Shown one piece after another: positions 55,242 to 56,276 of a DNA stretch of 64,000 nt. Source of the DNA: Candidatus Thorarchaeota archaeon (GTDB taxonomy: Archaea; Asgardarchaeota; Thorarchaeia; Thorarchaeales; Thorarchaeaceae); NCBI GenBank assembly GCA_048884785.1, contig JBHLQM010000003.1, positions 70,813-134,812 of the forward strand, in the 5' to 3' direction. Position 1 is the stretch's first letter. Each line of letters starts with the position of its first letter. A program made the position numbers and the translations under genes. Under the pieces are notes generated by a model that saw only the letters and a program-made list of their open reading frames with translations, was not told the origin of the DNA and ran no database searches.

Positions 55242-56276
55242 GTGACCAATGTGCGTCTTACTGCAATGGTTGATACTCACGGCTGAAGTTGCAAGGTCAA
55301 ACAGGCTGATTTGACACGGCTACTACAGAAGGCGGGATTGCTTCCTGAAAACGCACAATGCTATGACCTTGTGGGAGAGGATGCTGTTGTTCGTGTCTTG
55401 AATGCAAACACAGCAATTGTTGAGAATGTGGACGTCTTTACGCCTATCCACGACGACCCCTTTGTTCAAGGAGAGATTGTGGCGTGCAATGCAACAAATG
55501 ATGTCTTTGCAATGGGTGTTACAGATGTTGTTTCTCTTCAGGCATTTCTTGCATATCCTCCTGATCTACCAGAGGCAATACCTGTTGGTGTGTTGCGAGG
55601 CATGAGTGAATTCATGAAGCGCCTTGGTGCAATGCTGACTGGAGGACAAACAATCAAGAATCCAGTTCCTGTCTTTGGCGGAATCTGTATGGGCGTGATC
55701 CATCCAAGTAAGGTAGTCTATTCGCGAGGTGCCAAGGATGGTGATGCTGTTTTGCTGACAAAACCTCTCGGCATCCAGCCTGCAATGAGGTCGTATCGTG
55801 ATCTCCAGGATGAGAAACGAAACGTGCTTCTTCAGTCATTCGAGGAAGCCTCGCTCAAACATATCCAGGACATCGCTGTCAGGATAATGACTAAAAGCAA
55901 TCTGGAAGTGGCTCAAGCCATGCAGGAGGTGTCCGTTCATGCGGCCACTGATGTCACAGGGTTTGGCATTCTTGGGCATGCTGGAAATGTTGCTTCGCTC
56001 AGCTGTCTTGATGTCATAATTGATTCAGTGCCTGTGATCCGAGGAACTCTCCGCCTTTCGGAATTCTTTGGTCATAAGTTGGCTCTCGGAGCTGGAGCCG
56101 AAACGGCTGGAGGGATGCTTGTCTTCCTTGAATCCAATAAGTCACATGAATTCATTGAATTCCTCCGTGAAAGAGGGCTTCCCTGTTGGCCTATTGGGTA
56201 TGTGAAAAAAGCCGTGGGAGAACCTTCTGCCGCTTTTGCAGAAGATATTCAGTTCATTGAGACCGAGTTCCCATGA
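55242..56276 (+). CDS. selD: selenide, water dikinase (selenophosphate synthetase), Sec-containing form
   Basis: The track ORF starts at TTG 55311. The same frame upstream reads V T N V R L T A M V D T H G [TGA] S C K V K Q A D L T R L L. This is the SelD N-terminal active-site loop, with UGA where E. coli SelD has Cys17. The downstream body is PurM-like (DDPFVQGEIVACNATNDVFAMG, LTKPLG). Confidence 0.85.
55284..55286 (+). other. selD: in-frame UGA, probable selenocysteine codon of selD
   Basis: TGA sits in frame between GGC (Gly) and AGT TGC AAG (S C K), at the catalytic Cys/Sec position of the SelD/SPS family. Confidence 0.75.

Follow-up and report, generated by a model that had tools for sequence, protein, structure and literature searches.

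A Thorarchaeota selD gene with an in-frame UGA in its catalytic loop and a eukaryote-like SECIS element across its stop codon

The selD locus

We analysed 64,000 nucleotides (nt) of DNA from Candidatus Thorarchaeota archaeon (GenBank assembly GCA_048884785.1, contig JBHLQM010000003.1, positions 70,813 to 134,812), referred to here as the window and numbered from its first letter. The gene of interest, selD, lies on the forward strand at 55242-56276 and by its sequence encodes a selenophosphate synthetase (SelD/SPS; selenide, water dikinase) of 344 residues. Its frame is interrupted by a TGA, which an earlier reading made from the sequence alone took for a selenocysteine (Sec) codon. That sequence-only reading named no recoding signal. 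We found one, a eukaryote-like selenocysteine insertion sequence (SECIS) element at 56259-56338, overlapping the end of the gene.

A single frame holds a TAA at 55239-55241, a GTG at 55242-55244, the TGA at 55284-55286, a TTG at 55311 and the terminal TGA at 56274-56276. Translation from the GTG gives V-T-N-V-R-L-T-A-M-V-D-T-H-G-(TGA)-S-C-K-V-K-Q-A-D-L-T-R-L-L. These positions, the peptide and the GGAGGT upstream are all as the sequence-only reading had them. It had also said that the mechanical list of open reading frames (ORFs) starts the gene at TTG 55311 and so masks the codons before it, and the list does exactly this.

Orthologues were collected by searching one genome per GTDB species (GTDB r232). 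This gave 20 related Asgard loci, mostly from Thorarchaeota, with some from Promethearchaeota (Loki) and one from Hermodarchaeota, whose proteins are 63-75% identical to that of the window. A GGAGG-N11-13-GTG start is kept in all 21 loci, the window included. The ATG at 55233 was rejected as a start: its next codons are CAA TAA in the window, the related locus L002 has TGA directly after it, and it is not conserved among relatives. It opens a mini-ORF of three codons, ATG CAA TAA (55233-55241), that adjoins the GTG start of selD. The mini-ORF ATG is in frame with selD in L001 and L003 and absent from more distant relatives.

Public protein calls of this SelD clade (P0001-P0120) are nearly all short at the N-terminus, with 282-326 amino acids (aa) rather than about 344, because gene callers stop at the TGA. 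The lengths vary because the called starts scatter among relatives, and TTG 55311 is not a conserved start. The only full-length calls in the clade are P0004 and P0040, both of which read HG-C-SCKV. Several of the short entries are still named 'selenide, water dikinase SelD'; the misannotation is systematic.

The SelD protein

For profile scoring of the extended product the TGA codon was entered as a Cys placeholder. The protein scored 210.4 bits against TIGR00476 (SelD), well above the cutoff of 125, and the best NCBIfam model was NF010705 (PRK14105, archaeal-type SelD), aligned over residues 3-339 of 344. The architecture is that of a PurM-like two-domain protein, with PF00586 (AIRS) at residues 45-153 (53 bits) and PF02769 (AIRS_C) at residues 165-323 (58 bits). 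Alignments to SelD/SPS structures in the PDB begin at residues 3-5 of the extended product. The segments GEDAVV, VDVFTPIHDDP, NATNDVFAMG and ATDVTGFG match the GxDA, DxxxPxxDDP, NxxSDxxAMG and TDxTGFG motifs of the PDB chains, which are known from SelD structures to serve in ATP and metal binding. Profiles, domains and structural alignments all agree with the earlier assignment of the 344-residue product to SelD.

The UGA codon is aligned opposite Cys17 of E. coli SelD (3u0o), where the loop gaG-C-gCKi of the bacterial enzyme corresponds to thG-U-sCKv in the window (U marking the UGA). It also falls opposite the Cys of Leishmania 5l16 (G-C-SCK), the Cys of the Aquifex chain 2yye and the Thr of human SEPHS1 (G-T-GCK). 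The Lys three residues past the UGA is aligned with E. coli Lys20. The 23 codons dropped by gene callers thus hold the catalytic loop, because the residues encoded there align with Cys17 and Lys20. Both the placing of the UGA at the Cys17 position and the loss of the loop from a protein without these codons had been proposed from sequence alone, and the structure alignments, joined for the first point by the Cys-form homologues described below, bear them out.

The closest matches come from Thorarchaeota, Promethearchaeota (Loki) and Hermodarchaeota, and identity to database relatives is 62-76%. One entry, P0001, comes from an independent assembly and matches the window exactly over residues 44-344.

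The UGA codon in related genomes

Codon 15 is TGA in 20 of 20 related loci and never TAA or TAG. In every one of them it stands in the context R-L-T-A-[M/L]-V-x-x-H-G-(TGA)-S-C-K-V. A sense codon with a different N-terminus in close relatives would have spoken against recoding; the relatives carry instead the TGA and the same N-terminal peptide.

The codons on either side of the TGA evolve in the same way. Nucleotide diversity at codon positions 1, 2 and 3 is 0.152, 0.034 and 0.429 over the ten codons before the TGA, and 0.154, 0.121 and 0.444 over the twelve codons after it. The likeness of the two patterns indicates that both sides are constrained as one reading frame.

Two homologues have Cys at the aligned codon, encoded by TGT in P0004 (locus L022) and by TGC in P0040 (locus L021). 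Both codons are one base away from TGA, and together with the UGA forms they make a classical Sec/Cys pair.

The SECIS element

The final 24 nt of the gene and about 70 nt beyond it were aligned; the consensus structure had four helices, and a covariance model (R1) was built from it. The model had one strong match in the window, at 56250-56348 (83.4 bits), and one match in each of the 20 orthologous loci (76-102 bits). In the model-based alignment 94.4% of the cells are standard pairs; shifting the partners by one to three columns lowers this to 31-44%. Two-sided changes occur in 13 of the 22 pairs (68 cells), and none of 500 shuffles reached any of the observed covariation measures. The parts of the element are listed in Table 1.

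The seven pairs of the basal helix are 100% paired and three are compensatory, the variants being GAA/UUC, ACU/AGU and GCC/GGC (L002, L006, L008, L014, L020). The short UCC/GGA helix below the core is 98.4% paired; it shows no covariation because it is almost invariant. A pattern scan paired nine of the ten positions of the upper stem, and all seven of its modelled pairs change on both sides. The side hairpin has five pairs (95.2% paired), three of them compensatory (for example C-G to U-A), and is also present in the minimum free energy (MFE) fold of the single sequence. In the apical region AAA(C)C and GG hardly vary among the aligned sequences, in agreement with the [U/A][A/G]AA motif of unpaired adenines given for Thorarchaeia selD in a recent survey (PMC11227280).

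The AUGA core (56273-56276) is made of the last base of a Pro codon and the selD stop TGA. All 21 genes have TGA as this stop; the base before it is C in L003 and A or G in the other 20, and the core is accordingly AUGA in 12 loci, GUGA in 8 and CUGA in 1. On the 3' side a core GA followed by GGA is found in 20 of 21 sequences, L019 having UA. The G.A and A.G pairs of the core are probably sheared, judging from what is known of kink-turns and SECIS elements. In L019 (3997-4095) the replacement of GA-GGA by UA-GGA would put an A-U pair in the place of one sheared A.G pair. The CUGA of L003 and the UA of L019 are natural variants of the core and may inform function.

We compared the element with the type II model of Huang et al. 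2024 (PMC11227280). The [A/G]UGA ... [G/A]A core of that model is present, as AUGA at 56273-56276 and GA at 56310-56311. The upper stem (10 positions, 9 pairs) is within the permitted 7-15 base pairs (bp) with at most two mismatches. The AAA at 56287-56289 and the 2-bp CC/GG ministem around a 6-nt loop also fit, the model allowing a ministem of 2-8 bp and an apical loop of 2-6 nt. Being invariant, the ministem is neither backed nor contradicted by covariation. The bulge is 3-4 nt, depending on the register chosen, against 4-12 nt in the model. The core begins 1 nt before the stop codon and the basal helix 15 nt before it, within the range that the model allows around a gene's 3' end, from 30 nt before it to 600 nt after it.

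The Cys-type loci differ in what they have at this site. In L021 (1501-2608; TGC, stop codon TAG) the element is all but lost: the SECIS model gives 12.3 bits, to which its coding part contributes most. L022 (598-1699; TGT, with a TGA stop) has a weakened copy of the element, with 59.1 bits and two mismatches in the basal helix, as expected after a recent change from Sec to Cys. From their sequences the two loci look like two stages of SECIS decay following replacement of Sec by Cys.

SECIS candidates further downstream, among them a hairpin at about 56425-56445 and an AT-rich region with GUGA at about 56530, were rejected; they are not conserved and lack a 3' GA or an adequate stem.

Table 1. 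Features of the selD gene and its SECIS element (positions in the window)
Feature	Position	Strand	Remarks
selD coding sequence	55242..56276	+	344 codons and stop; GTG start; predicted Sec at codon 15
Shine-Dalgarno-like GGAGGT	55224..55229	+	13 nt separate GGAGG from the GTG start; read directly
In-frame TGA, probably read as Sec	55284..55286	+	Position of E. coli SelD Cys17; TGA in 21/21 orthologues
TTG of the mechanical ORF list	55311..55313	+	Codon 24; not the real start
SECIS element, eukaryote-like, whole	56259..56338	+	Overlaps the last 15 sense nt and the stop codon of selD
Basal helix, 5' strand GAGACCG	56259..56265	+	Codons for Glu-Thr and first base of Glu; pairs with 56332-56338
Short helix below core, UCC	56269..56271	+	In Phe-Pro codons; pairs with GGA 56312-56314
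Bulge C-A-U and core G-A	56272..56276	+	3-nt bulge, then G-A 56275-56276
Upper stem, 5' strand	56277..56286	+	Pairs with 56300-56309
Apical region	56287..56299	+	Unpaired AAA, then CC/GG ministem around GUAUGA; type II-like
Upper stem, 3' strand	56300..56309	+	Partner of 56277-56286
3' G-A of core	56310..56311	+	Opposite G-A 56275-56276
Short helix, 3' strand GGA	56312..56314	+	Partner of UCC 56269-56271
Side hairpin GCCGU-CGCAA-GCGGC	56317..56331	+	3' side, between core and basal helix; 56317-56321 with 56327-56331
Basal helix, 3' strand UGGUCUC	56332..56338	+	Partner of 56259-56265

How the UGA is read

The features of the sequence, the conservation among orthologues, the Sec/Cys pairing and the covariation of the RNA are direct observations of this analysis. 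Recoding of the UGA as Sec, proposed in the sequence-only reading, is supported by the invariant TGA (21/21), by the coding constraint around it, by the Cys homologues and by the covarying SECIS element. The presence of this element makes recoding mechanistically credible. We consider it very probable that Sec is inserted at codon 15 of selD and that the eukaryote-like SECIS element at the 3' end, lying across the stop codon, directs the insertion.

Several points weigh against this conclusion. With the Cys placeholder for Sec, the protein scored 290.4 bits with NF010705, 0.6 below its curated cutoff of 291. The single-sequence fold of the SECIS element is no more stable than those of shuffled sequences (z = -0.92), and the MFE fold draws the upper stem differently. 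Single-sequence folds of the 3' region of selD were not significant (z = -1.87 and -0.92), so the structure rests on covariation. The Rfam SECIS families gave no match, either in the window at the gathering threshold or in 56200-56800 at E <= 10; existing SECIS models are reported to fail likewise on Asgard elements (PMC4989117, PMC11227280). Lastly, no tRNA-Sec, EFSec, PSTK or SepSecS was found in the 64-kb window (Rfam, ARAGORN, and Pfam on about 58 ORFs), and the Sec machinery of the host is assumed from its relatives.

The UGA could instead be a true stop, dividing the locus into a 14-codon upstream ORF (GTG 55242 to TGA 55284) and a short SelD that starts at TTG 55311 or later. Mechanical ORF calling does begin at this TTG, and entries of the family in the databases are 282-326 aa long. 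However, a short SelD would lose the catalytic Sec/Cys-x-x-Lys loop aligned with Cys17 and Lys20 of E. coli, and the TTG is not conserved as a start. The stretch before the TGA shows the variation of coding sequence in the selD frame. The codon is always TGA (21/21), the Cys-form homologues read through the same peptide, and a covarying SECIS element accompanies the UGA forms. We regard a true stop as very improbable.

Equally improbable, in our estimate, is a UGA decoded in some other way: by near-cognate read-through with Cys or Trp, by reassignment of the codon throughout the genome, or as Sec with a bacterial-type SECIS hairpin next to the UGA. Read-through of UGA by Cys- or Trp-tRNA is generally known to occur under selenium limitation, but simple read-through would leave the conserved 3' SECIS element without a purpose. 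Reassignment is countered by the use of TGA as an ordinary stop, as it ends 11 of the 44 window ORFs of at least 200 aa, among them selD itself and the NAD kinase gene at 877-1809. As for a bacterial-type element, folding the 66 nt after the UGA from 15 orthologues together yielded a consensus energy of just -1.9 kcal/mol, and none of the pairs was compensatory. A sequencing or assembly error, or a selD pseudogene, has nothing in its favour beyond the in-frame stop codon itself and is in effect refuted by the orthologue comparison, with an identical TGA in twenty independent assemblies from different studies and an otherwise intact selD that is 62-76% identical to its relatives and matched exactly by P0001 over residues 44-344.

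Sec insertion at codon 15 of selD under the 3' SECIS element would proceed as follows. Translation would begin at GTG 55242, downstream of the GGAGG. The UGA at 55284-55286 would be decoded as Sec in the N-terminal glycine-rich catalytic loop H-G-U-S-C-K, and Sec would stand where the E. coli enzyme has Cys17 and precede the catalytic Lys by three residues. Recoding would be directed by the type II-like element at 56259-56338, acting from 989 nt downstream, and Sec itself would probably be inserted by Sec-tRNASec and the archaeal Sec-specific elongation factor. The terminal UGA lies within the SECIS core and on that account would not be recodable; it would escape recoding and serve as the stop.

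Comparison with known systems

The sequence-only reading had mentioned selenoproteomes reported for Lokiarchaeota-type Asgard archaea, and Sec-type SelD has been published for both Lokiarchaeia and Thorarchaeia (PMC4989117, PMC11227280). For Lokiarchaeota, an SPS that contains Sec and has a distinct type II-like SECIS element of its own was deduced in 2016 (Mariotti et al., PMC4989117). That the AUGA core takes in the stop UGA has been reported for Lokiarchaeia (PMC4989117, PMC11227280), and it was argued for Lokiarchaeota that the closeness of the terminal UGA to the SECIS element prevents its recoding (PMC4989117). When Huang et al. 2024 (PMC11227280) surveyed over 400 Asgard genomes, SelD was the most widespread selenoprotein, present in about 87-90% of Sec users, and 77% of Thorarchaeia genomes used Sec. 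The supplement of that survey holds 70 Asgard SelD sequences with RLTAMV...HGXSCKVKQ, and the inspected ones are labelled as Sec forms of Thorarchaeia.

The window gene closely resembles this published group, whose SECIS element is termed 'SPS lokiSECIS' or type II eSECIS-like. It shares the N-terminal peptide RLTAMVxxHG-U-SCKVKQ, and its SECIS element has the same site at the 3' end, the AUGA core over the stop UGA, the unpaired adenines and the apical ministem. The GAG...CUC of its lower stem is as reported for Asgard selD, and the window has an AUGA_GA core where a significant number of Thorarchaeia selD genes have GUGA_GA (PMC11227280). The window 24-mer IHDDPFVQGEIVACNATNDVFAMG is absent from the 2024 data set (PMC11227280). 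The selD sequence of the window occurs in no GTDB r232 species representative, the best being 75% identical. The available text of the two papers, figures and the 2016 supplement aside, mentions neither a side hairpin nor the 3-nt-bulge geometry (PMC4989117, PMC11227280).

The Sec-type SelD of Methanococcales and Methanopyrus is likewise archaeal, with Sec at the same position of the loop and a SECIS element in the 3' region and not beside the UGA. Euryarchaeal elements have a GAA_A bulge and a G/C-rich upper stem (PMC11227280), whereas the window has the eukaryote-like AUGA_GA quartet.

Eukaryotic SEPHS2, with a type II SECIS element bound by SBP2, is also a selenoprotein SPS whose own synthesis needs selenophosphate. 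Its element and that of the window both have an AUGA...GA core, unpaired As and an apical ministem, and act over a long distance (989 nt in the window). The upper stem in the window is shorter, however, and a bulge of 3 nt takes the place of the large internal loop. The window element also differs in overlapping coding sequence and stop codon and in having no Rfam SECIS match. SBP2 itself is reported not to have been found in Asgard archaea (PMC4989117).

E. coli SelD (3u0o) shares the fold and the catalytic motifs but is distant in sequence and has Cys instead of Sec. On the N-terminal side its loop has two more residues (SHGAGCGCK, compared with THG-U-SCK in the window).

Other genes of the window

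The next gene after selD, on the same strand, encodes an Arf/Ras-like small GTPase of 233-236 aa (window 56777-57487, +; L021:2945-3646; L022:1895-2605), and this order is conserved synteny in the window and both Cys-type loci. The roughly 440 nt of noncoding sequence between the two genes (56339-56776) had no Rfam match.

Gene content is typical of Asgard archaea, with three Arf/Ras/Roc-type GTPases, Roadblock/LC7 and TRAPP/V4R proteins. Genes of eukaryotic signature lie at 18903-22839, 39830-40363, 49767-51749 and 62379-62837 (all +). Genes for a V4R-domain protein and two proteins with TRAPP domains form a close group; the others encode a Roadblock/LC7 protein, a 660-aa protein whose GTPase domain is of the Arf/Roc type, and a Ras-family GTPase with a strong match (155 bits). 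The GTPase, Roadblock and TRAPP/V4R genes and the best matches of SelD fit a host that is an Asgard archaeon most like Thorarchaeia. The window also encodes RtcB, aIF5A, class I LysRS and L13e. A 1287-aa ORF at 58509-62372 (+), between a gene for a TPR protein and the Roadblock gene, has a marginal match to Peptidase_C25 (23.4 bits, at the cutoff).

ARAGORN found no tRNA of any kind in the window, and the sole Rfam match in the scans, a fragment of a long non-coding RNA, was judged to be due to chance. Pfam scans of the roughly 58 ORFs found no HdrA, Frh or Prx-like gene.

A scan of the window for in-frame TGA codons returned 30 candidates, of which the two long ones were examined. The stretch 877-2325 (+) resembles a TGA-split gene and consists of two genes without a gap. 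Its TGA at 1807 was rejected as a Sec codon, since it separates the NAD kinase gene (877-1809) from a TTG-started PIN-domain gene (1810-2325) and has no SECIS element. The TGA at about 37188 was also rejected; the two same-frame ORFs there (36796-38016, -; 276 and 129 aa) have no Pfam match and no SECIS element nearby, and are probably two adjacent genes. Weak matches of the SECIS model at 33427 and 45742 (E about 0.5) are antisense inside coding sequences. A loose pattern scan for eukaryote-type elements gave 11 further matches, mostly within coding sequence and none tied to a TGA-split gene. The 64-kb window has no other credible SECIS element and no other selenoprotein gene.

Discussion

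Sec-type SelD with a SECIS element of this kind is already known for Lokiarchaeia and Thorarchaeia, and the gene described here adds one more lineage to a well-sampled picture of Asgard selenoproteomes. It opens no new question.

The architecture of the element invites a more specific proposal. The UCC/GGA stem, the 3-nt bulge and the tandem G.A pairs would together form a canonical kink-turn arrangement; this geometry, and with it the kind of protein that reads the element, we infer from the RNA sequence. The selD element might then be a three-way junction, made up of a kink-turn of the kind bound by L7Ae rather than SBP2, the covarying side hairpin and the basal helix within the coding sequence. 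We hold this to be rather unlikely as a whole. Were these features functional and undescribed, the archaeal SECIS-binding factor that has long been sought could be L7Ae, or else a protein recognising the side hairpin. Each terminating ribosome would also melt the element, which would couple translation of SelD to the efficiency of its own recoding. The covariation-supported architecture of the element, with its putative kink-turn, its side hairpin and its basal helix in the coding sequence, may help to find that factor.

The practical value of the result lies in annotation. Gene callers drop the catalytic loop; the gene model should start at GTG 55242, carry Sec at codon 15 and include a SECIS element over the stop codon. 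The selD gene also marks the host as a probable user of selenocysteine. The prediction of further missed selenoproteins, made in the sequence-only reading, is reasonable, and other TGA-split genes in its genome, such as those for HdrA, FrhA/FrhD and Prx-like proteins, therefore deserve the same treatment.

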